Below are positions 7,272-62,773 of a stretch of 64,000 bases of DNA, one piece after another (positions within the stretch are counted from its first letter, which is position 1; every line of letters starts with the position of its first letter). Below the pieces are notes generated by a model, which worked only from the letters and a program-made list of their open reading frames with translations, had not been told where the DNA came from and searched no databases. The position numbers and the translations under genes were made by a program. Source of the DNA: Gaiellaceae bacterium. Its GTDB lineage: Bacteria > Actinomycetota > Thermoleophilia > Gaiellales > Gaiellaceae. The stretch spans positions 23 to 64,022 of the forward strand of contig DASVEW010000032.1 of assembly GCA_036380355.1 (NCBI GenBank), read 5' to 3'.

Positions 7272-8588
7272 TCAGCGATCGCCGGTATCGACCGCCCGGA
7301 CGATTTGCGCCAGCACGATCGTCCCGAGCAGTGCGATCGCTCCGAGGAGCAGCGCAATGATCGTCAGCACGATCGGATCGTCGAGCGGTTTGTCATCGGC
7401 GGCTCCGATGACCCGGTCTGCGAAGCCCCTCGCGGTTCCGGCGACCCCGCGGACCGCTCGGGCGACCGATTCCTTGATGTCCTCTACGCGGCTTCCGCCT
7501 GCACCCAACTCGTCAGCGGTGCCTCCACCTGCTGCGAGGAAGGCGATGTCTGCGATCGGCTCGCGGCAGGTGTTTTCCGTGCGGGCCTTTCGCACCCTTG
7601 CCTGCGACATCTTCCCGCTCGCGATCACGATCGGGACGGCCGCGGCATCCCGCTTCGCCCCGCGCGCCCGAATGACGAGTCGATAGCCGCCCGGCGGGAG
7701 TGTTCGCCCGCGAAACCGTCCACGGAAGGGAAGCCGGTTCACGCCTGCATGGGCTCGGACCGAGTAGCTTCCCAGCCGCTTGCAGGACGGGTAGACGCGC
7801 ACGATCGAGATCCGCAGGACGGCGCCGCGCGAGAGCCGGAAGGTCAGCGTGGTTCCGGCAGCCTTGCGGCCGGGGCGCAGGACGGTGCGAGAGGCGCGGA
7901 CCGCGCTTCGTTGCTCGCTGCAAGCTCTCGGCTTCGGCGGGCAGCTGGCAGCTCTGAGCGTGAACGGCCCGGCCGGCATCGAGCCGGAGGTCGAGGCCGA
8001 GGCGGCCGCTCCGGGGGCGCTGAGCCCCTCTCGGGAGCCCGACCGTCCGGTTGACCCGCTTCCGGACCCGCTCGTCGGCGTCGACCCGCTGCCAGTGCCG
8101 CCTGTCGTGGGCGTCTGCGTGGTCGTCGACGTCGTCAGCGTCGGGGCCGGAGGCGGCGGTGCAGGAGGCGGCGGAGGCGGCGGGAGATTCGGCGGCGGCG
8201 GCGGAGGCGGAAGCGGAGGCGGTGGCGGAAGGGGAGGCGGCGGCGGAAGGGGAGGCGGCGGCGGGAGCGGTGGTGGAGGCGGGAGCGGCGGCGGTGGTGG
8301 TGGAGGCGGTAGCGGCGGCGGTGGTGGTGGAGGCGGTAGCGGCGGTGGCGGTGGTGGAGGCGGTAGCGGCGGTGGCGGCGGCGGAGGCGGGAGTGGGGGA
8401 GGCGGCGGCGGAGGAGGAAGCGCGCTTTCCCGTGGCGTACCAGCCCCGACCTGCGCGTCGGACGCGCCCCCTGCCGGGGCCAGCACGAAACAGGCAACCG
8501 CGGCCGCAAGCGAAGCGGTCAGGGTTCGTTTCCTCACCGCAGAACCCCCGTACGCATCTTCACAGAGCGATTCCCCGGTCGCGCGCAA
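7272..8588 (-). CDS. secreted, C-terminally membrane-anchored protein with an extreme poly-proline tract, a Thr/Ser/Gly linker and a beta-sandwich-like domain
   Basis: Signal-like N-terminus (alternative GTG start at 8537 preceded by GGGGG). Tract is (P8L)x5 then (P5L)x4 plus further P runs. C-terminal TM is IVLTIIALLLGAIALLGTIVLAQIV. The TM region shows high GC3 on this strand. Confidence 0.7.
   Translation of the reverse strand: MRATGESLCEDAYGGSAVRKRTLTASLAAAVACFVLAPAGGASDAQVGAGTPRESALPPPPPPPPLPPPPPPPPLPPPPPPPPLPPPPPPPPLPPPPPPPPLPPPPPLPPPPPLPPPPPLPPPPPLPPPPPPPNLPPPPPPPAPPPPAPTLTTSTTTQTPTTGGTGSGSTPTSGSGSGSTGRSGSREGLSAPGAAASASTSGSMPAGPFTLRAASCPPKPRACSEQRSAVRASRTVLRPGRKAAGTTLTFRLSRGAVLRISIVRVYPSCKRLGSYSVRAHAGVNRLPFRGRFRGRTLPPGGYRLVIRARGAKRDAAAVPIVIASGKMSQARVRKARTENTCREPIADIAFLAAGGGTADELGAGGSRVEDIKESVARAVRGVAGTARGFADRVIGAADDKPLDDPIVLTIIALLLGAIALLGTIVLAQIVRAVDTGDR
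8142..8417. repeat. tandem 27-bp and 18-bp coding repeats (poly-Pro tract)
   Basis: The + strand reads GGCGGTAGCGGCGGCGGTGGTGGTGGA-type units in tandem. They encode PPPPPPPPL and PPPPPL on the - strand. Confidence 0.85.
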
Positions 8589-10058: not shown

Positions 10059-11055
10059 GGGCCGCTCCGGCGACCCGCACTACGGGAAGACGATGCGCGG
10101 GATCGTCGCCTACGCGCCCGATCCGGTCGTCGCGATCCTCGACTCCGAGCGGGCCGGGGAGAGCTACCGCGACATCCCGATCGTCGCGACCGTGGAGGAG
10201 GCGATGGCCTACGGGCCAACGACGGCGACCGTAGGCGTGGCGACGCAGGGCGGCCGCTTTCCGCCCGCGTGGCGCGAGCTGCTGAAGGACTCCATCCGCG
10301 CCGGGCTCGACCTCGAGAGCGGGCTGCACGAGTTCATCAGCGAGGACCCGGAGCTGACCGTGCTGGCGCGCGAGCACGGCGTCGAGCTCCGCGACCTCCG
10401 CAAGCCCCCGACCGATCTCAGCGTCCCGACCGGCGAGAACCTGCGCGTACCGGCGAAGATCGTGCTCACGGTCGGCTCGGACTGCGCGATCGGCAAGAAG
10501 ACCGTCGCTGTGGAGCTCGACCTCGCCGCCCGCGGGCGCGGACTGAAGTCCGTGTTCGTGCCCACCGGGCAGACGGGGATCGCGATCGCGGGCTGGGGGA
10601 TCGCGATCGACGCTGTCGTGGCGGACTTCCTGGCCGGCGCTGCCGAGCGGCTCGTCGTCGAGGGGGCCGCCCGCGAAGGCGAGCTGCTGTGGGTCGAGGG
10701 GCAGGGATCGCTGAACCATCCGGCGTATTCCGGGGTCACGATGGGCCTGATCCACGGAAGCGCCCCGCACGCCTACGTCCTCGTCCACAAGGCGCGAGCG
10801 ACCCACGTCGAGGGCTACCCCGACCATCCGCTACCCCAGCTCCGGGACCTGATCGAGCTCCACGAGCGATCGTCGCTCCTCCTCCGTCCGGCGAAGGTCG
10901 CGGCCGTCGCGCTGCACACCGGCGGCCTCGAGGAGGACGCTGCGCGCGCCGAGATCGCCCGCGTTGCTGAGGAGACCGGGCTCCCGACGGACGATCCCGT
11001 GCGCTTCGGCGCCGATCCCCTCCTGGACGCCGTCCTGGACGTCGTGGCAGACTGA
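10024..11055 (+). CDS. DUF1611-family protein (reported as D-glutamate N-acetyltransferase DgcN in some bacteria)
   Basis: 343 aa. Contains GTMRGI-type, VGSDCAIGKKTVA (P-loop-like) and GQGSLNHPAYSGVT motifs as I remember them for DUF1611. Overlaps the epimerase gene. Confidence 0.8.
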   Translation: MASGKKYLVLAEGRSGDPHYGKTMRGIVAYAPDPVVAILDSERAGESYRDIPIVATVEEAMAYGPTTATVGVATQGGRFPPAWRELLKDSIRAGLDLESGLHEFISEDPELTVLAREHGVELRDLRKPPTDLSVPTGENLRVPAKIVLTVGSDCAIGKKTVAVELDLAARGRGLKSVFVPTGQTGIAIAGWGIAIDAVVADFLAGAAERLVVEGAAREGELLWVEGQGSLNHPAYSGVTMGLIHGSAPHAYVLVHKARATHVEGYPDHPLPQLRDLIELHERSSLLLRPAKVAAVALHTGGLEEDAARAEIARVAEETGLPTDDPVRFGADPLLDAVLDVVAD

Positions 11056-12635
11056 TGCGGTTTCGCAGAGGAATGAAGGGGTTTAGGGAAACCGCCGTCT
11101 TGACGGCCTGCATCTGCGGGCTGCTTGCGCTGGCCGCGCCGGCTGCGGCGGACGTCAGCGTCGGGGTGGCCGACGACCGCGGCAAGCTTGCGCCGGACGG
11201 CGGCGCCGCGTTCCTCGCCGCCATGCGGGACGTCGGGCTGACCGAGAACAGGATCACGCTTGCCTGGGACCCCGACCATCCAACGACCATCCGCGAGAAG
11301 GACTCGCTCGACCGCTACATCGCGAACGCAACGGCAGCGGGCGTCCGCATCTCGATGGTGATCGCGCCCAGCCGTGCGCGTGCGCTCTTTCGCTCCACCT
11401 CGGCGACCGGCCAGTACATCGCGTTCCTCGCCCAGGTCGCCCGGACCTACCCGCAAGTGAGGGACATCGCCGTCGGCAACGAGCCGAACCAGCCCCGGTT
11501 CTGGCAGCCCCAGTTCAGCACCCGCGGCGCCGGCCTCGCGTGCACCTCGTACGCCCGCGTCCTGGCGCAGGCCTACGACGCGCTCAAGGCGGTCAACACC
11601 TCGATCACCGTCCTCGGCGTCTCGCTCTCCCCGCGCGGGAACGACAACGCCCTCGCGGCCACGAACGCCTCGACCTCGCCGGTCCGCTGCATCCGCGACA
11701 TGGGCGCCGCCTACCGCGCCGGCCGCCGCAAGCGGCCGATCATGGACGAGCTCGCCTTCCATCCGCATCCGAACTCGAACACCGACACCTTCCTCGTCGG
11801 CTACCGCTGGCCGAACGCCGGCACGCCGAACCTCGGGCGGATCAGGCAGGCCGTTTGGGATGCCTTCCGCGGCACCGCCCAGCCGGTCTTCGCCGAGGCC
11901 GGGCGGCCCGTGTCGCGCGCGGCGCGGCCGCCGCTCCGGTTCCGCCTCAACGAGATCGGCTGGCAGACGTCGATCCCGGCCTCCTCGATGCACGCGTACT
12001 ACGGGCGCGAGTCGGTCCCGCGCCTGGCGGAAGACCGCCACCAGTCCGACGTCTACTCGGCCCTGATCCCGTACTACGCGTGTGACCAGTCCGTGAGCTC
12101 GATGCTCTACTACGGCCTCGTCGACGAGCCCGACCTCGAACGCTGGCAGGCCGGCCTGCTCCGCGCCGACTGGAGCCGCAGGCCGTCGTACAACACCGTG
12201 AAGTCGATGATCGCCCGCGGTCGCACCAAGTGCGCCCGCCGCGCGGTCCGTTGGCGTCACTCGACCGTCGTGGTCGGCGCGACCGCGAAGTTCGGCGAGC
12301 GACGCCGGTCGGCCGGCGACACGAACTGGACGTTCGTCTCGAGCTCCGAGGAGGCGAGCACGTTCACGGGCGCGATGTACCGCCTGAAGAGCCGCAGGCT
12401 GGGCGCGAAGGCGCGGAAGCGCCTTCTGGCCGCGGTCGGTGTGAGGAGGGCTCCGAAGCCCGTTCTCACCGCCCGCGGCAAGGTCCGCGCACACCAGGGG
12501 GCGTTCGTCCGCTTCAAGCGGAAGCGCCTCAGGCCGGGCCACTACGTGTTCGCGGTCCGGCTCCGGGCCGAGATGAACCCCACCCGGACGACGGCGTTCG
12601 TCTCGCGGCCCTTCGCAGTCGGAACGCGTAGGTAG
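11055..12635 (+). CDS. secreted TIM-barrel glycoside-hydrolase-like protein (clan GH-A features)
   Basis: Signal peptide (LALAAPAAADV). VGNEPN (acid/base-type NEP) and LNEIGWQ (nucleophile-type) motifs. C-terminal Ig-like tail. Family not resolved. Confidence 0.6.
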   Translation: MRFRRGMKGFRETAVLTACICGLLALAAPAAADVSVGVADDRGKLAPDGGAAFLAAMRDVGLTENRITLAWDPDHPTTIREKDSLDRYIANATAAGVRISMVIAPSRARALFRSTSATGQYIAFLAQVARTYPQVRDIAVGNEPNQPRFWQPQFSTRGAGLACTSYARVLAQAYDALKAVNTSITVLGVSLSPRGNDNALAATNASTSPVRCIRDMGAAYRAGRRKRPIMDELAFHPHPNSNTDTFLVGYRWPNAGTPNLGRIRQAVWDAFRGTAQPVFAEAGRPVSRAARPPLRFRLNEIGWQTSIPASSMHAYYGRESVPRLAEDRHQSDVYSALIPYYACDQSVSSMLYYGLVDEPDLERWQAGLLRADWSRRPSYNTVKSMIARGRTKCARRAVRWRHSTVVVGATAKFGERRRSAGDTNWTFVSSSEEASTFTGAMYRLKSRRLGAKARKRLLAAVGVRRAPKPVLTARGKVRAHQGAFVRFKRKRLRPGHYVFAVRLRAEMNPTRTTAFVSRPFAVGTRR

Positions 12636-12796
12636 TGCCCCACCAGGCAATCCACGCCGGTTTCTGGCCCGCGATCACGCTGCGCCAGAGCCGACCCTCC
12701 TCCTCACCAAGGCTGTCCAGCCTTGGCTCGTCGGACGGCGCGCTCTGGCTTGGTGCTCGCGACCCAGAAAAGGGGCAGGATCACCTGGAGGGGCAC
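12635..12796 (+). repeat. 162-bp imperfect-palindrome intercistronic element, copy 1
   Basis: About 89% identical over its full length to 29633..29794 (18 mismatches, hand alignment). Folds into one long hairpin with conserved apical stem CCAAGGCT/AGCCTTGG. Confidence 0.85.
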
Positions 12797-12798
12797 TA

Positions 12799-13926
12799 GT
12801 GCGCGACCCGCGGCTCGAGAAGCTCGCCGAGCTGATCGCCGGCTACTCGCTCGACCTCCGCGAGGGGCAGGTCTACCGGATCGACGGCGAGGAGGTCTCG
12901 ACGCCGCTGGCCGTCGCGCTGTACGCCGCGGCCCTCCGCCGCGGCGCCCACCCGTACACGCGGATCGTCCCGGCGGGGCTCGACGAGATCGAGCTCGAGG
13001 CGGCCTCGGACGAGCAGCTGACCTACATCCCGGAGGTCGAGCGGATCGCGACCGAGGAGCTGGACGCCTGGACGTCCCTCTGGGGAACCGTCAACACCCG
13101 TGCGCTCACACGCGCGGACACCGAGCGGCGCCGCCTGCAGCTCTCGACGCACTACCGGATGGTCAACCGGCGCTGGGAGCGGATCAGCGCGGGCGAGCTC
13201 GCGTGGTGCGGCACCCTTTACCCGAGCCAGGCGCACGCGCAGGACGCCGAGATGTCCCTGGCCGAGTTCGAGGACTTCGTCCACGGCGCCTGCCACACGC
13301 GCGAGGGCGACGACCCGATCGCGCACTGGCAGAGCATGTCGCAGACGCTCACGGCGCGGGCGCGGGAGCTCGAGGGCGTGCGCGAGCTCCGCATCGTCGG
13401 CCCCGACACCGACCTCAGGGTGGTCGTCGAGGGCCGCCGGTGGTTGCCCTCGGACGGCAAGGACAACATGCCCGACGGCGAGGTCTTCACGAGCCCGGTC
13501 GAGACCGGGACGAACGGCGAGATCTACTTCGCCTTCCCGTCGGTCTTCCAGGGCCAGGAGGTGGAGAACGTCCGCCTGCGGTTCGAGGACGGGCGGGTCG
13601 TGCACGCCGAAGCGAGCTCGGGCGAGGAGTACCTGCGCTCGCTCCTCGACACCGATCAGGGGGCGAGCGTGCTCGGCGAGGTCGCGTTCGGGCTCAATTA
13701 CGAGATCGACCGCTTCACCCGCGACATCCTCTTCGACGAGAAGATCGGCGGGACGATGCACGTCGCGCTCGGCGGCGGCTTCGACGAGGCGGGAACCGAG
13801 AACAAGTCCGACCTGCACTGGGATCTCATCTGCGACCTCCGCGAGGAGGGCGAGGTGTACGCCGACGGGCAGCTCGTCTGGAAGACGGGCTCGTTCCTCG
13901 CCGAGCCGGCGGTCGAACGTGTCTGA
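12799..13926 (+). CDS. M29-family aminopeptidase (AmpS/PepS-like), paralog 1
   Basis: 375 aa. LAELIAGYSLDL at the N-terminus, NMPDGEVFTSP, and GGTMHVALG...LHWDLI at the C-terminus are typical of thermophilic-metalloprotease M29. Confidence 0.85.
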   Translation: MRDPRLEKLAELIAGYSLDLREGQVYRIDGEEVSTPLAVALYAAALRRGAHPYTRIVPAGLDEIELEAASDEQLTYIPEVERIATEELDAWTSLWGTVNTRALTRADTERRRLQLSTHYRMVNRRWERISAGELAWCGTLYPSQAHAQDAEMSLAEFEDFVHGACHTREGDDPIAHWQSMSQTLTARARELEGVRELRIVGPDTDLRVVVEGRRWLPSDGKDNMPDGEVFTSPVETGTNGEIYFAFPSVFQGQEVENVRLRFEDGRVVHAEASSGEEYLRSLLDTDQGASVLGEVAFGLNYEIDRFTRDILFDEKIGGTMHVALGGGFDEAGTENKSDLHWDLICDLREEGEVYADGQLVWKTGSFLAEPAVERV

Positions 13927-13930
13927 CCCC

Positions 13931-15040
13931 ATGCACGCCAAGCTCGCCGAGGTCGTCGTCGGCTACTCGACCGAGGTGAAGCCCGGCAACGTCGTGCGCA
14001 TCGAGGCCTACGACGGCGTGGCGGCGCCGGTCATGCGCGAGGTTTACGCCGCAGCCCTCCGGGCCGGCGGCCATCCGACCGCGAACCTCGTGCTCGAGGA
14101 GGCCGACGAGACGCTCTACAAGGAGGGCAGCGACGTCCAGCTCGAGTGGATCTCGCCCGACCAGCGCTGGAACGTCGAGCACGGCGACGTCTGGGTCGTG
14201 TTCGACGCGCCGACGAACACGAAGCGCCTCTCGAACGTCGACCCGGAGCGGATCGCGAGGCGCCTGAAGGCGCGCCGCCCGCTGCAGTCGCTCTACCTCG
14301 AGCGCTCGGCGAGGGGCGAGTTCCGCTGGCTGATCTGCGGCTTTCCGTGCGAGGCGTCCGCGCAGGACGCCGGCATGTCGCTGCGGCAGTTCGAGCAGGT
14401 GCTCTACCGCGCGGCGTTCCTGGACGAAGACGACCCGGTCGCGGCGTGGAAGCGCTTCGGCGACCGCCTCGAGGAGATCGGCTCGCTGCTGGAGACGAAG
14501 CGGGAGCTGCGAATCGTCGGCGAGGACACCGATCTCACGCTCGGCGTCGAAGGCCGGTCGTGGATCCGCGCGAAAGGCCTCCGGAACTTCCCCGACGGCG
14601 AGGTGTTCACGGGGCCCGTCGAGACGAGCGTCGAAGGGACGATCCGGTTCTCCTTCCCGGCGATGATGCGCGGCCGCCAGGCCCACGACGTCCGCCTACG
14701 CTTCGAGGGCGGCGAGGTGGTCGAGGCGACCGCACGGCGGGGCGAGGGCTTCCTGCGGGAGATGATCGGCATGGACGACGGCGCAAGGCGCGTCGGCGAG
14801 TTCGCCTTCGGCCTCAACGACGCGATCAGCGAGTACACCGGCAACCTCCTGCTCGACGAGAAGATCGGCGGCACCGTCCACCTTGCTCTCGGGCGGTCCG
14901 TCCCCGGGACGGGCGGCCAGAACCAGTCGGGCCTGCACTGGGACATCGTCTGCGACCTGCGGGACGGGGGAGAGGTGTACGCCGACGGCGAGCTCGCGTA
15001 CAGGAACGGCGCCTTCCTGAACGGCGCCTCCGGCTCCTGA
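13931..15040 (+). CDS. M29-family aminopeptidase (AmpS/PepS-like), paralog 2
   Basis: ATG 13931 lies 5 nt after paralog 1's stop. Same motif set (NFPDGEVFTGP, GGTVHLALG, LHWDIV). Confidence 0.85.
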   Translation: MHAKLAEVVVGYSTEVKPGNVVRIEAYDGVAAPVMREVYAAALRAGGHPTANLVLEEADETLYKEGSDVQLEWISPDQRWNVEHGDVWVVFDAPTNTKRLSNVDPERIARRLKARRPLQSLYLERSARGEFRWLICGFPCEASAQDAGMSLRQFEQVLYRAAFLDEDDPVAAWKRFGDRLEEIGSLLETKRELRIVGEDTDLTLGVEGRSWIRAKGLRNFPDGEVFTGPVETSVEGTIRFSFPAMMRGRQAHDVRLRFEGGEVVEATARRGEGFLREMIGMDDGARRVGEFAFGLNDAISEYTGNLLLDEKIGGTVHLALGRSVPGTGGQNQSGLHWDIVCDLRDGGEVYADGELAYRNGAFLNGASGS

Positions 15041-27502: not shown

Positions 27503-28678
27503 GTGGCGCGCGTCCTGGTCGGTGTCACCGGGGGGATCGCCGCTTACAAGGCGTGCGAGCTGGTGCGTCTGTTCGTCAAGGGCGGCCACGAGGTCGTCCC
27601 GCTCGTGACGCCCGGCGCCGACCGCTTCGTGCGGGCCGAGACCTTCCACGCGCTCGCGCGGCGGGCGCCCGATGCGGCGTACCCGCACCTCGAGCGCGCG
27701 GATCTCTACCTGATCGCGCCGCTCACGGCCAACACGCTCGCGCAGCTCGCCCACGGGCTCGCCGACAACGTCGTCTCCGAGGCGGCGCTCGCACACGACG
27801 GGCCGCTGCTTGTGGCGCCCGCGATGAACGTGCGGATGTGGAACCACCCGGCGACGCAGGCCAACGTCGAGACGCTCAGAAGACGCGGCGTGGAGATCGT
27901 CGGGCCCGAGGAGGGCGACCTCGCCGAGGGCGAGGAAGGCGTCGGCCGGATGGCGGAGCCCGTGGACATCTTCGCGCGCGCCGAGCAGCTTCTCGGGGCA
28001 AGTAACAGTCTGTTACTTGGAAAGACGGTGGTCGTTGCGGCCGGTGGCACGCGGGAGCCGATCGACGCGGTGCGCTACGTCGGCAACCGCTCCTCCGGGC
28101 GGATGGGCGCTGCGGTGGCCGAAGAAGCTCGCCGCCGCGGAGCCCGGGTGACGCTGATCGCGTCGAATCTGGGCGTCGATCCTCCCACCGGCGTCCAGGT
28201 CGTGCAGGCCCCGACCGCGGCCGACCTGGCCCGGGAGACTGTGGCCCGGGGAGACGCGGACGTCGTGGTCATGGCCGCGGCCGTCTCCGACTACCGGCCT
28301 GCGGACCCTCGCGCCGACAAGCGCCCGAAGGACGAGGCGCCCTGGCAGCTCGAGCTCGAACCGACCGACGACGTGCTGCGGACGCTCGGCGCGCAGTCGA
28401 CGAACGGCCGGATCCTGGTCGGCTTCGCCGCGGAGACCGGGGAGGACGGTCTCGCCCGCGCCAGGGCGAAGCGGACCGGCAAGAATGCAGATCTCGTCGT
28501 CTACAACGATGTGGGCAGGTCGGACGTGGGGTTCGAGTCGGCCGACAACGAGGTCGTACTGATTTCCGAGGCAGGGGAGCGGAGGGTGAGCAAGGCGCCG
28601 AAGAGCCGGATCGCAGCCGAGATCTGGGACGAGGTCGAGCGGCTGCTAGGGGAGAACGGTGGCCGAGCGGAGGGCTGA
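27503..28678 (+). CDS. coaBC: bifunctional phosphopantothenoylcysteine decarboxylase / phosphopantothenate-cysteine ligase
   Basis: GVTGGIAAYK (flavoprotein domain), PAMN, then AGGTREPIDAVRYVGNRSSG (CoaB domain). Confidence 0.9.
   Translation: MARVLVGVTGGIAAYKACELVRLFVKGGHEVVPLVTPGADRFVRAETFHALARRAPDAAYPHLERADLYLIAPLTANTLAQLAHGLADNVVSEAALAHDGPLLVAPAMNVRMWNHPATQANVETLRRRGVEIVGPEEGDLAEGEEGVGRMAEPVDIFARAEQLLGASNSLLLGKTVVVAAGGTREPIDAVRYVGNRSSGRMGAAVAEEARRRGARVTLIASNLGVDPPTGVQVVQAPTAADLARETVARGDADVVVMAAAVSDYRPADPRADKRPKDEAPWQLELEPTDDVLRTLGAQSTNGRILVGFAAETGEDGLARARAKRTGKNADLVVYNDVGRSDVGFESADNEVVLISEAGERRVSKAPKSRIAAEIWDEVERLLGENGGRAEG
27999..28019. repeat. perfect 21-bp AT-rich palindrome CAAGTAACAG-T-CTGTTACTTG inside the coaBC interdomain linker
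   Basis: Read directly. Same motif family as 49760..49780 and 49816..49836. Confidence 0.8.
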
Positions 28679-29630
28679 GGAGCGTCCGAGGTCGATCGAG
28701 GTCTCGGGCGAGACGCTCGACCGCGTGACCGCGAACATCGGCCGGGTCGTCCACGCGCCACAGGAGACGCTCCGGCTGGCCGTGCTCTCGCTCGTCAGCG
28801 AGGGACACCTGATCATCGAGGACTTCCCCGGGGTCGGGAAGACGATGCTCGCGAAGGCGCTCGCGCGCTCGCTCGACTGCTCCTTCTCGCGGATCCAGTT
28901 CACGCCCGACCTGCTCCCGTCGGACGTCACCGGCGTGAACGTGTTCGACCAGCGGACGAACGAGTTCGAGTTCCGGCCCGGCCCGGTCTTCGCGAACCTG
29001 CTGCTCGTGGACGAGGTCAACCGCGCCTCGCCCAAGACCCAGGCGGCGCTCCTCGAGTGCATGCAGGAGAACCAGGTGACGGTCGACGGGGTCAGCTATC
29101 CGCTCGGCCTGCCGTTCATGGTGCTGGCGACGCAGAATCCAATCGAGTACGAGGGCACGTATCCGCTGCCGGAGGCGCAGCTCGACCGCTTCACGATGCG
29201 CCTCTCCATCGGCTACCCGCCGCTCGCCGAGGAGGCGCGGATGCTCAACGAGCAGACGAGCGAGCCGCCGCTCGAAACCCTCGAGCCCGTCTCCAGTACG
29301 GCGGAGATCGTCGGCGCGATCGAGGACGCGAAGCGCGTCTTCGTCGAGGAGAGCGTCAACCGCTACGTGGTCGCGCTGCTCCGGCACACGCGCGCCGACG
29401 AGCGGCTCTACCTCGGCGCGAGCCCCCGGGCCGGCATCGCCCTGCTGCGCGTCGCCAAGGCGCGCGCGATCTCGGAGGGCCGCGAGTACGTCCTGCCGGA
29501 CGACGTCAAGGCGGTCGCCGAACCGGTGCTCGGCCACAGGCTGATCCTCGGCCCGGAAGCGCGTGCGGCCGGCCTCGGGGCCTCAGAGCTGATCGCGGAC
29601 GCCGTCGAGCGGACGCCGGTCCCCGTCTAG
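28659..29630 (+). CDS. MoxR-family AAA+ ATPase
   Basis: Walker A FPGVGKT. Also FSRIQFTPDLLPSDVTG, Walker B LLLVDEVNR and ATQNPIEYEGTYPLPEAQLDRF. Confidence 0.9.
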   Translation: MAERRAEERPRSIEVSGETLDRVTANIGRVVHAPQETLRLAVLSLVSEGHLIIEDFPGVGKTMLAKALARSLDCSFSRIQFTPDLLPSDVTGVNVFDQRTNEFEFRPGPVFANLLLVDEVNRASPKTQAALLECMQENQVTVDGVSYPLGLPFMVLATQNPIEYEGTYPLPEAQLDRFTMRLSIGYPPLAEEARMLNEQTSEPPLETLEPVSSTAEIVGAIEDAKRVFVEESVNRYVVALLRHTRADERLYLGASPRAGIALLRVAKARAISEGREYVLPDDVKAVAEPVLGHRLILGPEARAAGLGASELIADAVERTPVPV

Positions 29631-29632
29631 TC

Positions 29633-29794
29633 GTGCTCCTCCAGGCGATACACGCCTGCTTCTGGCCCGCGATCACTCGGCGCCAGAGCCGACCCTCCTC
29701 CTCACCAAGGCTAGGCAGCCTTGGCTCGTCGGAGTGCGCGCTCTGGCTTGGTGCTCCCGACCCAGAAACGGGGCAGCATCACCTGAAGGAGCAC
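29633..29794 (+). repeat. 162-bp imperfect-palindrome intercistronic element, copy 2
   Basis: See copy 1. Lies between the moxR stop (29628-30) and the DUF58 ATG (29797). Confidence 0.85.
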
Positions 29795-29796
29795 TG

Positions 29797-31020
29797 ATGC
29801 TGACCCGCCGCGGCCGGTTCACGCTGGCGCTGGGCGGAGGCACCTACCTGGGCGCCTGGGCATTCGGTGCGCAGGTGCTCTACGCGCCTGCCGTCGGCCT
29901 CTTGCTCGCCGTCGGCGTAGCGCTGATCTGGACGAACGCGCTCGCGCGGCCGCTCCGTCTCCACCGCCACCTCGACCGCGAACGGCCGGTCGAGGGCGAC
30001 GACGTCGTCGTGAGGGTCGAGCTCGAGGCGGAGGGAGGCGTGATCCCCGCAACGGTGCTGCTGCACGAGCCGGTCGGGAGGCTGGGCGAGCAGGAGGTCG
30101 TCGTCGCGCGGGACGGACGATTCCTCCGCGCGGTCTACCGGCTGCCGAACGTCCCGCGGGGCCGCTACCGCTTCACCGGCGCCCGCGCCGTCGTGGACGA
30201 CCCCTTCGGGCTCGCGAAGCGCGTCCAGCCGCTCGAGGACGCGGCGCCGCTGCTCGTCTATCCGCGGCTCGCGCGCCTGAACGCGCTCTTCGCCGAGCGG
30301 GGCCTCCGCGCCCACGGCGCCGGGCGGATGCTCCTGCGCCGCCCGACCGGCTTCGAGCTCCACAGCGTGCGCGAGTACCAGAGCGGCGAGTCCCTCCGGC
30401 GGGTCCACTGGCCGTCCACGGCCCGCCGCCACCAGCTGATGGTGAAGGAGCTCGAGGACGCCCCGCGCGACGAGCTCGTCATCGTGCTGGACGCGGAGGC
30501 CGGGCACGGTGCCGGGCGGCCGGGCGACTCGAGCTTCGACGCGCAGGTGCGCGCGGCCGGATCCCTCCTTTGGGCCCACGCGCGCCGCGGCCGGCACGCC
30601 CGTCTCGTAGTCACGAGCGCCGCCGCGGACGACGCTGTGTCGGTCCGCAACTACGAGCGGGACTGGCCGCGCGCGCTCGAGATCCTCGCCTCGGTGGAGC
30701 AGAACGGCCGCCGCCCGGTCGAGACGCTCCTGAGCGACCAGGCCGGGGCGGCCACCCATGCGCGCGACCTCGCAGTCGTCACCGCGGCGCTGCGGCCTCC
30801 GCTGGTCCAGACGCTGATCTCCCGCGCGGCGGCGAGGCAGGAGGTCTCGGTCGTGTACGTGGACGCACCCTCCTATGCCGGCCGCCGGCAGGCGACGCTC
30901 GGCGCCGCGACCGCCGTCCTGCGTCTGGAGAGCGCCGGCATCGCCGTTGCCGTGCTCCGCCGGGGCGACGACCTGGAGGCAGTGCTCGGCGGAGCGGAGA
31001 GTGGGGCGGCGCATGGTTAG
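29797..31020 (+). CDS. DUF58-domain protein (vWA-like partner of MoxR)
   Basis: ATG 29797. Two N-terminal TM segments. REYQSGESLRRVHWPSTAR is the DUF58 signature. Confidence 0.85.
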   Translation: MLTRRGRFTLALGGGTYLGAWAFGAQVLYAPAVGLLLAVGVALIWTNALARPLRLHRHLDRERPVEGDDVVVRVELEAEGGVIPATVLLHEPVGRLGEQEVVVARDGRFLRAVYRLPNVPRGRYRFTGARAVVDDPFGLAKRVQPLEDAAPLLVYPRLARLNALFAERGLRAHGAGRMLLRRPTGFELHSVREYQSGESLRRVHWPSTARRHQLMVKELEDAPRDELVIVLDAEAGHGAGRPGDSSFDAQVRAAGSLLWAHARRGRHARLVVTSAAADDAVSVRNYERDWPRALEILASVEQNGRRPVETLLSDQAGAATHARDLAVVTAALRPPLVQTLISRAAARQEVSVVYVDAPSYAGRRQATLGAATAVLRLESAGIAVAVLRRGDDLEAVLGGAESGAAHG

Positions 31021-60605: not shown

Positions 60606-61628
60606 ATGAGAGCACGAAGGCTCATCCCGCTTGCGATCGTCGCTGTTGCTGCGATCGTCGTCGCTGCGGCAGCGGGGCTCGCGTCCAGCGGGTCGAGCGA
60701 CGCTGCGCCAAAGGTCTACAAGGTCGGCCTGGTCAGCGACGTCGGTCGCTTCAACGACCGGTCGTTCAACCAGTCCGCGCTCGAGGGTCTTCGGCGCGCC
60801 CAGCGCGTCCTGAAGGTTCAGGGCCGCGCGGTCGAGTCGCGCCAGACGAGCGACTACATCCCGAACCTCTCGGCGCTCGCACGTCAGCGCTACGACGCCA
60901 CGATCTCGGTCGGTTTCCTGCTCGCCGAGGCGACGAACACCGTCGCCACGCGCTTCCGGAACTCGAAGTTCGCGATCATCGACTACTCCGTCGCGGCAGC
61001 GCCGTTCAAGAAGAACCGGAACGTGGTGGGCCTGGTCTTCGCGACCAACGAGAACAGCTACATGATCGGCTGCCTCTCGGCCCTGATGGCGAACCAGCGT
61101 GGACGCAGGATCATCAGCGCGGTCGGCGGCATCAAGCTCCCGACGGTGGACATCTTCATCGCCGGGTACCGGGCCGGCGCCCGTCGCTGCGTCCCCGGGA
61201 CGCAGGTCCTGATCGGCTACTCGCAGGACTTCGTCGCGCAGGACAAGTGCAAGGAGGTCGCGCTGAACCAGATCGCCCAGGGCTCGCAGGTCGTGTTCCA
61301 GGTCGCCGGTGGCTGTGGCCTCGGCGCGCTCGACGCGGCCAAGGAGCGGGGCGTGTGGGGTCTGGGCGTCGACAAGGACCAGAAGGTCCTCGGGGCTCAC
61401 ATCCTCACGAGTGCGGTCAAGCGGGTGGACACGTCGGTCTACCTGACCGCGAAGGCCGTCAAGGAGGGCAAGTTCCGCGGTGGCCGCGACCTGAACTTCA
61501 ACCTGAGGAACGGTGGCGTGGCTGTCGGCCGGATCGACCGGCGCGTACCGCGCGCCTTCATCCGGCGGATGAACAACCTGAAGCCGCTGATCATGAGCGG
61601 CCGCATCAAGCCGCCGAAGAAGCTCTAG
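60606..61628 (+). CDS. BMP-family (PnrA-like) ABC substrate-binding protein, paralog 1 (no lipobox Cys)
   Basis: Contains VGLVSDVGRFNDRSFNQSA and GGIKLPTVDIFIAGY. N-terminal TM/signal without Cys. Confidence 0.85.
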   Translation: MRARRLIPLAIVAVAAIVVAAAAGLASSGSSDAAPKVYKVGLVSDVGRFNDRSFNQSALEGLRRAQRVLKVQGRAVESRQTSDYIPNLSALARQRYDATISVGFLLAEATNTVATRFRNSKFAIIDYSVAAAPFKKNRNVVGLVFATNENSYMIGCLSALMANQRGRRIISAVGGIKLPTVDIFIAGYRAGARRCVPGTQVLIGYSQDFVAQDKCKEVALNQIAQGSQVVFQVAGGCGLGALDAAKERGVWGLGVDKDQKVLGAHILTSAVKRVDTSVYLTAKAVKEGKFRGGRDLNFNLRNGGVAVGRIDRRVPRAFIRRMNNLKPLIMSGRIKPPKKL

Positions 61629-61723: not shown

Positions 61724-62773
61724 GTGCGCAAGACGCAATGGCTCGCGGCGTTCCTCGCCTGCGGGCTCCTCGCTGTCGGTTTCGCCTGCGGCGGAGACGA
61801 CGACGACGGTGAGGAAGCCGGAGGAGCGACCACGGCCGAGACAACGGCCGGCGAGCCGATCAATGTCGGTCTCGTCAGCGACGTCGGTCGCTTCAACGAC
61901 CGCTCGTTCAACCAGTCCGCGCTCGAGGGCCTGCAGCGCGCGGAGGAAGAGCTCGGAGTCACAGGCCGGCCCGTCGAGTCGAGACAGACGAGCGACTACG
62001 TGCCCAATCTGTCGACCCTCCCGAGGGACGGCTTCGAGCTCACGATCGGCGTCGGGTTCCTGCTCGCGGAGGCGCTCAACACGGCCTCGAAGCGGTTCCC
62101 GGACTCCAACTTCGCGATCATCGACTACTCCGTGAACGCAGAGCCGTTCGCGAAGAACCCGAACGTGCAGGGCCTGACGTTCGCGACGAACGAGAACAGC
62201 TACATGATCGGTTGCCTGGCCGCGCTGATGGTCGAGCGGCAGGGCGGCCAGCAGGTGATCAGCGCGGTGGGCGGGATCAAGCTGCCGACCGTCGACATCT
62301 TCATCGCCGGCTACCAGGCGGGCGCGAAGCAGTGCAACCCGGGCATCAGGGTCCTGATCGGCTACTCCCAGGACTTCGTCGCCCAGGACAAGTGCAAGGA
62401 GGTCGCGCTCAACCAGATCGCACGCGGCTCGCAGGTGATCTTCCAGGTCGCCGGCGGGTGCGGCCTCGGCGCCCTCGACGCGGCGCAGGAGCGGGACAGG
62501 TGGGGCATCGGCGTCGACCGCGACCAGTCGAGCCTGGGGCCGCACATCCTCACGAGCGCGGTCAAGCGCGTCGACCAGTCCGTGTTCCTCACGGCGCAAG
62601 CCGTTCAGGAGGGCGAGTTCCAGGGTGGGACCGACGCGACGTTCGACCTCGAGAACGAGGGCGTCGCGATCGGGAAGATCAGCCCGGACGTGCCGCAAGA
62701 GTTCATCGACCGGATGAACGAGATCAGGGACCAGCTGATCTCCGGAGAGCTCGAGGCGCCCGCGACGCTGTAG
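61724..62773 (+). CDS. BMP-family (PnrA-like) ABC substrate-binding lipoprotein, paralog 2
   Basis: GTG 61724 after AAGGGGG. Lipobox LAVGFAC. About 70% identical to paralog 1 by eye. Confidence 0.85.
   Translation: MRKTQWLAAFLACGLLAVGFACGGDDDDGEEAGGATTAETTAGEPINVGLVSDVGRFNDRSFNQSALEGLQRAEEELGVTGRPVESRQTSDYVPNLSTLPRDGFELTIGVGFLLAEALNTASKRFPDSNFAIIDYSVNAEPFAKNPNVQGLTFATNENSYMIGCLAALMVERQGGQQVISAVGGIKLPTVDIFIAGYQAGAKQCNPGIRVLIGYSQDFVAQDKCKEVALNQIARGSQVIFQVAGGCGLGALDAAQERDRWGIGVDRDQSSLGPHILTSAVKRVDQSVFLTAQAVQEGEFQGGTDATFDLENEGVAIGKISPDVPQEFIDRMNEIRDQLISGELEAPATL

Follow-up and report, generated by a model that had tools for sequence, protein, structure and literature searches.

A 162-bp palindrome that occurs twice in a 64,000-nt stretch of the genome of a Gaiellaceae bacterium (contig DASVEW010000032.1; hereafter the window) probably belongs to a dispersed, non-autonomous family of Gaiellaceae palindromes that resemble MITEs (miniature inverted-repeat transposable elements) and act as self-contained translational-coupling cassettes, a reading to which a probability of about 0.65 is assigned. 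The unit, 5'-(A)GTG...CAC(T)-3', measures 162-164 bp, and every copy is intergenic, with a start and a stop codon of its own. An earlier, sequence-only reading of the window had likened the two copies to mycobacterial interspersed repetitive units (MIRUs) and regarded them as spacers that maintain translational coupling between neighbouring genes. Comparison with related genomes supports this interpretation, with translation and coupling judged from the comparative evidence.

Copy 2 (29633-29794, plus strand) comprises 162 nt or 54 codons from GTG to CAC and forms a single long imperfect hairpin. It follows the gene of a MoxR-type AAA ATPase (AAA_3; 28659-29630, plus strand), whose TAG (29628-29630) ends 2 nt before the element, and precedes the gene of a DUF58 protein (29797-31020, plus strand), whose ATG start at 29797 is supported by an N-terminus, MLTRRGRF, that is kept in relatives. 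The A of the mini-frame stop TGA (29795-29797) is the first base of this ATG, giving TGATG. The 5' terminal arm (GTGCTCCTCCAGG; 29633-29645) contains the mini-frame's GTG start together with a CCUCC stretch predicted by folding to base-pair with the downstream Shine-Dalgarno sequence, a GAAGGAG motif in the 3' terminal arm (29785-29791) located 5 nt upstream of the DUF58 start. Copy 1 (12635-12796, plus strand), likewise 162 nt or 54 codons, lies between the gene of a 526-aa protein without Pfam match (11055-12635, plus strand), which precedes the aminopeptidase gene in relatives too, and the gene of an M29 aminopeptidase (Pfam PF02073; 12799-13926, plus strand; 375 aa), whose GTG start at 12799 is supported by homologues of equal length. 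A TA at 12633-12634 and the first G of the element together form the upstream stop TAG (12633-12635), which shares this G with GTG 12635. A second TA (12797-12798), an apparent target-site duplication when filled and empty sites are compared, forms with G 12799 the mini-frame stop TAG, which overlaps the aminopeptidase GTG, and a Shine-Dalgarno-like GGAGGGG (12787-12793) stands 5 nt before that start.

These layouts agree in every coordinate with those given by the sequence-only reading, namely 54 codons with TAGTG at both ends for copy 1, and GTG 2 nt past the moxR TAG, 54 codons and TGATG for copy 2. Its counts were also reproduced: the two copies differ at 18 of 162 nt, split 5/7/6 across the codon positions, and their peptides share 42 of 54 residues, with 4 of the 16 changed codons synonymous. 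As it had noted, the reverse complement carries in-frame stops in the frame read from its own GTG. The repeat is not a chance resemblance, a 40-nt core pattern having 2 matches in the window and 0 in 100 shuffles; a repeat search aligned the pair at 88% identity over 171 nt, and an nhmmer profile of the element matched only these two copies within the window. An exact look-up of the window's MoxR protein returned no record.

For a census, one genome per species was scanned with the apical stem-loop (CACCAAGGCT-AGG-CAGCCTTGG; 29703-29724, plus strand, in copy 2) as the pattern, and BLAST then delimited the copies; a palindromic pattern allows no orientation bias, but it selects copies with an intact apex. 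With one exception, the 32 loci found by the scan are from Gaiellaceae or actinomycete metagenome-assembled genomes, and the copies total 36 including those of the window, at 2-5 per Mb contig in about 20 genomes of uncultured soil Gaiellaceae or uncultured Actinomycetes. No tandem copies were found at any locus, the copies being single 162-bp palindromes. Its orientation is unambiguous (140-177 bits forward versus about 45-55 bits reverse), and the coding strands of the flanks were called from open frames and the phase of GC1/GC2/GC3, the G+C contents at the three codon positions. Both flanking genes lie on the element's strand in 26 of the 35 copies with two callable flanks, four copies are reversed (L009, L011, L017 and L028), and the remainder are mixed or ambiguous. 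After orthologous sets were collapsed (the four moxR/DUF58 copies, L005/L021 and L020/L022; defined by tblastx flank scores >200 bits only, since spurious matches among G+C-rich flanks otherwise swamped the clustering), 21 independent sites were co-oriented and 4 reversed. The intercistronic, co-oriented placement anticipated by the sequence-only reading was thus borne out at the 21 sites, and welded junctions, in which the mini-frame is joined to the neighbouring stop and start codons, occur in 0 of the 4 reversed copies. Operon junctions confirmed by Pfam include S14/S8 (L031), the positions upstream of S13 (L025) and of cytochrome b (L013), adenylate kinase/methionine aminopeptidase (adk/map, L025) and DnaJ/HspR-type MerR (L005/L021). 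An ABC permease/ATPase junction, likewise confirmed by Pfam, carries the element in L020/L022, among the copies ending CACTGATG.

In 23 of the 35 copies that are readable from the 5' end, the mini-frame measures 54 codons exactly and closes with a stop at the element's 3' end. The distance from the upstream stop to the GTG is 0-8 nt, with (C)TAGTG as the most common arrangement, and the 3' junction is TGATG in 11 copies, TAGTG in 7 and TAATG in 3, with ATGA or GTGA in L024, L025b and L023, and stop and start within 2 nt of each other in L026 and L027. About 18 co-oriented sites have a downstream start that overlaps the stop of the mini-frame or stands at most 2 nt from it, and the overlap junctions are kept as had been claimed. 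Among the reversed copies, the frame of L009 runs far beyond the element, indels break the frame of L011 and L028, and that of L017 stays open across the element with no terminal stop; L018 has an internal stop, and its downstream gene is 500 nt away. The start-to-stop lengths of all co-oriented variants are 24, 48, 147, 162, 165, 168, 225 and 228 nt, comprising a composite of 225/228 nt that contains an internal insert of 63 nt (L006, L023), forms of 147 nt (L079) and 48 nt (L074), a 24-nt remnant (L033/L034), and related families of 162, 165 and 168 nt (L065, L082, L091, L041, L045). At least five independent indel events among co-oriented copies are in multiples of three, versus one that is not, and the claim that length is conserved as a multiple of 3 holds for all structural variants with L003 as the sole exception. 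The remnant is a stretch of 28 nt (CAGTGCCCCTCCAGGCGATGGAGCACTG; L033:3470-3510, L034:3470-3510) between moxR and DUF58, in which a deletion of 138 nt, exactly 46 codons, left a frame of 8 codons (VPLQAMEH*) that ends in a TGATG overlap.

The encoded peptide itself shows no sign of selection. A functional small protein of 54 codons might be expected from a frame that in most copies begins with GTG, is uninterrupted and closes with a stop, and a search of 5.8 billion proteins did find four predicted proteins of this kind, the only matches, too few for a protein-based census. However, codon positions 1/2/3 account for 142/192/159 differences across 33 aligned copies, with no third-position excess, and the synonymous share equals that of random placement (41 versus 40.7 expected, unique variants). 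The G+C content of the element at the three positions is 0.66/0.64/0.74, against a GC3 of about 0.9 in the flanking genes, neither window peptide has a Pfam match, and the 8- and 16-codon deletion variants and the 75-76-codon insertion variants keep only the ends and the frame. With no coding-type selection and a codon composition unlike that of a gene, the small-protein reading was rejected as extremely improbable, in agreement with the earlier statement that the amino-acid sequence is under no visible purifying selection. The openness of the frame is kept, as had also been proposed: stop-creating differences number 3 versus 13.3 expected (0 of 1000 permutations as low, P<0.001), or 1 versus 4.9 among unique variants (P=0.04), and 29 of 33 copies have an open forward frame, whereas each reverse frame contains at least one stop in nearly all of them. 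The terminal GTG/CAC triplets show no covariation within the family, and the one related family with altered ends has ATG/CAT, again a start codon. All copies have a G-rich purine block at the Shine-Dalgarno position of the 3' arm, whose last 13 nt contain GGAGGGG, GAAGGGG or GAAGGAG, pairing with a CCCCUCC-type sequence of the 5' arm; positions 1-13 of the consensus structure pair with positions 152-164, with covariation.

The hairpin is maintained, with strong covariation. The two window copies fold singly into long imperfect hairpins of -90.8 and -102.6 kcal/mol, more stable than shuffled sequences (z = -5.1 and -6.8). Across the family the ends read GTGCCCC.../...GGGGCAC and the 56-pair hairpin has 96.4% of its cells paired, with 23 of the 56 pairs changed on both sides, versus 8.0±1.5 in shuffles and 5-10 with slid partners. 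Two adjacent G.U pairs, columns 48-49 with 118-119 of alignment A2 (window 29680-29681 with 29749-29750), are present in 29-33 of 33 copies. No variation occurs at several bases of the internal loops or at a U.C mismatch (columns 42/124), and mismatches of the 3' arm abolish the TGA triplets that a perfect palindrome would contain. A strand-specific RNA signal, sought as G.U versus A.C mismatches, was not decisive, the variable cells holding more A.C than G.U. A structure this stable that begins 0-3 nt past the upstream stop might terminate transcription or, as a ribosome termination structure, insulate translation, in either case separating the cistrons, and stable structures after stop codons reportedly govern re-initiation (PMC7518266). 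However, the element has no T-run, no terminator was called and a promoter and terminator scan returned nothing. In addition, copies are located within operons for ribosomal proteins and chaperones, in which termination would do harm, and insulation needs neither a start codon, nor a multiple-of-three frame, nor a stop that overlaps the next start. The terminator reading was rejected on operon context and the missing T-run and terminator call, and separation of the cistrons in either form is very unlikely.

The moxR/DUF58 locus shows how the element changes at one site. Among 80 metagenomic moxR loci compared, distant relatives have GTATGACC (an ATGA overlap) and the close outgroups L036, L037 and L038 are empty, with TAA/TAG stops. 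A neighbour-joining moxR tree places the four filled sites in one clade, together with a complete loss (L035) and the L033/L034 remnant, and the tree and shared diagnostic substitutions argue for inheritance of the four filled sites by descent. Within what would be one insertion the 3' junction reads TAGTG (L012), TAG-TC-ATG (L027) or TGATG (window, L032), always keeping the stop beside the start despite these changes. The orthologous copies are 90-97% identical (93.8% for copy 2 against those in L012 and L027), while four-fold sites of the adjacent moxR are only 54-65% identical; in L020/L022 the element is 98.8% identical versus 88% at four-fold sites. Recent bursts and concerted evolution are excluded because copies within a genome (identity 0.869) are no more alike than copies between genomes (0.861). 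Variation is about 5% in the central columns 29-70 and 96-137 versus 16-19% in the terminal stems, the apical-stem part of this central conservation being a product of the search pattern, and unpaired columns are conserved as well. A spacer that needs only pairing and an open frame should drift faster, which suggests an additional sequence-specific constraint, an argument that fails if the four filled moxR sites are independent recent insertions. The proposal of a coupling spacer stands on the comparative side, but nucleotide conservation goes far beyond what a mere spacer would need.

This deep conservation at orthologous sites raises the possibility of domestication. The element might be a cis-acting RNA or DNA module whose central stem and internal loops are recognised by a trans-acting factor (an RNA-binding protein, ribonuclease or recombinase), the open frame merely letting ribosomes pass and the real function being regulation or processing of operon mRNA. 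The excess of element identity over four-fold sites within a single clade of filled sites, the quiet central columns with their conserved unpaired positions, and the equal identity within and between genomes, which leaves neither burst nor concerted evolution to account for the conservation, all favour such a module. Its factor is putative, however, the search pattern accounts for some of the central conservation, and there is no Rfam family match: in the window only two tRNAs reach the gathering score, and the best matches of the element at the E-value threshold are noise. The module alone does not explain the multiple-of-three lengths or the depletion of stops, and it is compatible with, not exclusive of, a coupling cassette. 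We regard it as a possible but improbable alternative. It is somewhat more doubtful that the central hairpin of about 100 nt, with its fixed internal loops and G.U pairs, is bound by a shared factor that gates ribosome passage or mRNA cleavage across core operons; if so, the factor-gated hairpins would constitute a regulon (ribosomal proteins, dnaJ-hspR, moxR-DUF58, transporters) built from a mobile coupling cassette.

How the welded junctions arose can be read from empty sites. At the copy 1 site, L113 (...AAG TA/GTG CGC GAC) and L116 (...TCC TA/GTG CGC GAC) have a plain TAGTG overlap, so that the empty TA/GTGCGCGAC corresponds to TA[GTG..CAC TA]GTGCGCGAC in the window; L115 has TGATG at this site. 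The insertion added 164 nt, that is, 162 nt and a second TA, and it is equally readable as AGTG...CACT placed between the T and A of the stop. TAGTG stands at both junctions of copy 1 because the insertion hit an existing stop/start overlap. The welded TAGTG junctions stem mainly from such insertion and were not made by selection, which qualifies the earlier view of the junctions as a conserved feature, although they are present as described. At dnaJ/hspR, empty sites read TAATG or TGATG and filled ones AGC TA[GTG...CAC TG]ATG, which fits TA duplication followed by A>G and duplication-free insertion after the T of TGA equally well. TA stands on both sides in 8 copies, and CAC-TG forms the 3' end of about 14. 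At moxR the junctions are remodelled, and copy 1 suits TA duplication and insertion after the T of the stop alike. The window contains only 22 CTAG sites, 11 of them at called stop codons, so an element preferring (C)TA(G) would often hit stop codons.

From this it might be supposed that the element is a neutral, selfish MITE, with junctions and frame as by-products of a TA/CTAG target, GTG...CAC ends and high G+C content, and with no selection at the level of the host. Junction geometry is automatic upon insertion into TAGTG, half of the window's CTAG sites are stop codons, and contiguous open frames are frequent in bacterial MITEs (PMC2229807). The consensus is, moreover, largely open in all three forward frames, which in a G+C-rich sequence makes openness alone weak evidence. 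However, a palindromic target gives no orientation preference, yet the independent sites are strongly skewed to one orientation; five or more independent indels are all multiples of three; stops are depleted; and orthologous copies are far more conserved than neutral sites. Purely neutral persistence is therefore unlikely.

Under the preferred reading of a coupling cassette, the element would insert at a T-A/T-R step, which in this 71% G+C genome is usually a stop codon. Where the target is a TAGTG-type overlap, the ends of the element would rebuild the upstream stop from the flanking T or TA and the element's G, provide a GTG start overlapping that stop, and set a far-end stop that overlaps the untouched downstream start. 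The element itself brings a length in multiples of three, a frame free of stops in one orientation only and, in the 3' arm, a Shine-Dalgarno sequence, as ribosomes need to cross it. In the mRNA, the hairpin would hold the downstream Shine-Dalgarno sequence and start locked against the 5' arm. A ribosome ending the upstream gene would re-initiate at the overlapping GTG, read 54 codons while melting the hairpin on its way, terminate at the 3' end and re-initiate on the downstream gene. Since the element could be crossed by ribosomes, the operon would tolerate the insertion and downstream translation would stay coupled to upstream translation; copies that retain coupling would persist, and others would disappear or remain only away from tight junctions. 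Termination-reinitiation at -1/-4 overlaps is a recognised process in bacteria (PMC6728339), and the same coupling logic has been proposed for MIRUs (PMC12548453). The comparisons show the anatomy, the insertion site, the bias in orientation, the conserved frame, the covariation of the hairpin and the lack of peptide selection, whereas translation, re-initiation and transposase-driven mobility are what we infer for the element.

Several observations weigh against this scheme, in addition to the openness of all three forward frames. The CACTG 3' ends need an extra A>G change under the TA-duplication reading, and the 660 kb scanned contained neither an autonomous partner with matching ends nor a cognate transposase, the only end match being the 225-nt composite copy in L006. 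The four reversed copies sit between co-directional genes, and L003, which is co-oriented and welded, has a 1-nt deletion whose frameshift ends the frame 13 nt early. The central 100 nt, unpaired bases included, are conserved far beyond what the model needs. The census covered only copies with an exact match in the apical stem, and the case for coupling is one of comparison.

Other palindromic families occur at one of these junctions. At moxR/DUF58, different but distantly related palindromic elements occur in L041, L045, L060/L091, L065, L082, L079 and L074; they represent at least 5 families from other soil actinobacterial lineages, stand directly after the moxR stop (for example, L091:3430-3607) and are co-oriented, and those covered whole all have a bridging frame that ends at or on the DUF58 start. 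The junction is thus an insertion hot spot, with several palindromic families at the same spot. In L091:3430-3610, L065:1052-1230 and L082:1519-1700 insertion destroyed the ancestral ATGA start of DUF58 (junction CACTGACC); within the element, the DUF58 frame contains an ATG or GTG in L091 (MSPGGAL-TSRGR) and L065, and only CTG in L082, so the elements of L091 and L065 may donate a new DUF58 N-terminus. A four-codon frame in L037:3470-3490 (ATG TCT CGC CGA TGA, MSRR*) lies between the moxR TAG and the DUF58 ATG with an ATGA overlap and may be the last trace of an L041-type element. L002 carries a second element, also with a bridging frame, upstream of another gene. The composite subfamily (L006:1591-1815, L023:669-896, L029:1-183, L079:3454-3600) keeps a frame of 75-76 codons; its 63-nt insert consists of two small palindromes (GACGGTCG..GGCAAAGCC.. 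and GTCGGCGCCGAC) replacing part of the 3' arm, and a similar small palindrome stands alone at L008:1656-1713. At dnaJ/hspR in related lineages, L118:516-701 and L119/L120/L121:471-704 have non-palindromic small open reading frames (ORFs) of 61 and 77 aa, which overlap dnaJ by 1 nt (TGATG) and hspR by 1 nt (TGATG, L118) or 4 nt (GTGA, L119-L121); they are hydrophobic and look like small membrane proteins.

The window contains further repeats. The aminopeptidase gene downstream of copy 1 (12799-13926) and a second gene at about 13918-15040 are tandem M29 paralogues, a pair also found in L113-L116. A 9/12/15-nt periodic repeat with 21 overlapping copies (8106-8446) encodes, on the minus strand, a long PPPPPPPPL proline-rich tract in a 438-aa ORF (7272-8588), and 60719-61412 and 61861-62557 are tandem paralogous segments, 78-91% identical at a spacing of about 1.14 kb.

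If the coupling reading is correct, the family exemplifies a mobile element that survives in tight operons because it comes with a start, a stop-free frame, a ribosome-binding site and a stop of its own, and it points to stop/start overlaps as safe landing sites in G+C-rich genomes. It would also provide a naturally occurring system in which to test termination-reinitiation through a very stable structure. For annotation, the 54-codon frames, and the N-terminal extensions sometimes donated downstream, should be recognised as element-derived.

The literature searched contains no description of repeats in Gaiellales or of a MITE with this coupling design, although the silence of one library is no proof of novelty. 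Among known palindromes, the repetitive extragenic palindromic sequences and their REPIN pairs (REP/REPIN), associated with RAYT transposases, are 20-40-nt palindromes with a conserved GTAG or CGTC tag at one end (PMC3733652); a REP/REPIN identity was rejected for an element of 162 nt whose 5' flank is mostly CTA, with GTA in only 2 copies, and an attC-like identity was likewise rejected. Rickettsia palindromic elements are palindromes of about 150 bp whose length and frame, like those of the present element, can be translated without harming the host gene, but they are inserted inside coding sequences as in-frame fusions (PMC10969869), whereas the Gaiellaceae element is a separate mini-cistron between cistrons. 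In structure, the element fits the general description of bacterial MITEs (Correia/NEMIS, ERIC, RUP and YPAL; PMC2229807), which have 100-200 bp, terminal inverted repeats, TA ends and a long stem-loop transcript, occur as dispersed copies with filled and empty sites, and may contain a contiguous open frame (168 bp and 56 codons in YPAL). Small dispersed copies, terminal inverted repeats and a long stem-loop are all found in the present family. However, the open frames of those families are described as fusing to neighbouring genes, or the elements as acting via RNase III, IHF or mRNA stability; a self-contained, welded frame with a built-in Shine-Dalgarno sequence is absent from their description in that source, and a cognate insertion sequence was not found in the 660 kb. 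Synthetic bicistronic designs and leader ORFs (PMC12548453) share the principle of a short upstream frame that ends at the gene start and holds its Shine-Dalgarno sequence, the translating ribosome clearing inhibitory structure and delivering itself to the start, but these are engineered constructs and not natural mobile repeats.

In function, the element resembles the MIRUs of Mycobacterium (Supply et al. 1997, summarised in PMC12548453), which are direct repeats with units of 40-100 bp, often arranged in tandem in varying number. They lie between operon genes in co-orientation, with a short frame that overlaps the flanking stop and start and is read as preserving coupling. Intercistronic co-orientation and the overlapping frame recur in the Gaiellaceae family, while tandem direct repeats of 40-100 bp do not. 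The element is instead a single 162-bp hairpin palindrome whose ends are inverted repeats and whose insertion apparently duplicated TA, and the downstream Shine-Dalgarno sequence in its 3' arm and its Gaiellaceae host (class Thermoleophilia) set it further apart from the MIRU description. The sequence-only reading was thus correct in seeing a MIRU-like property in a single palindrome of another lineage. The element functions as a MIRU does without belonging to the MIRU family; the Gaiellaceae palindromes form a MITE-like family whose coupling frame is MIRU-like, and would represent a second, independent invention of the MIRU strategy, by a hairpin-forming MITE.

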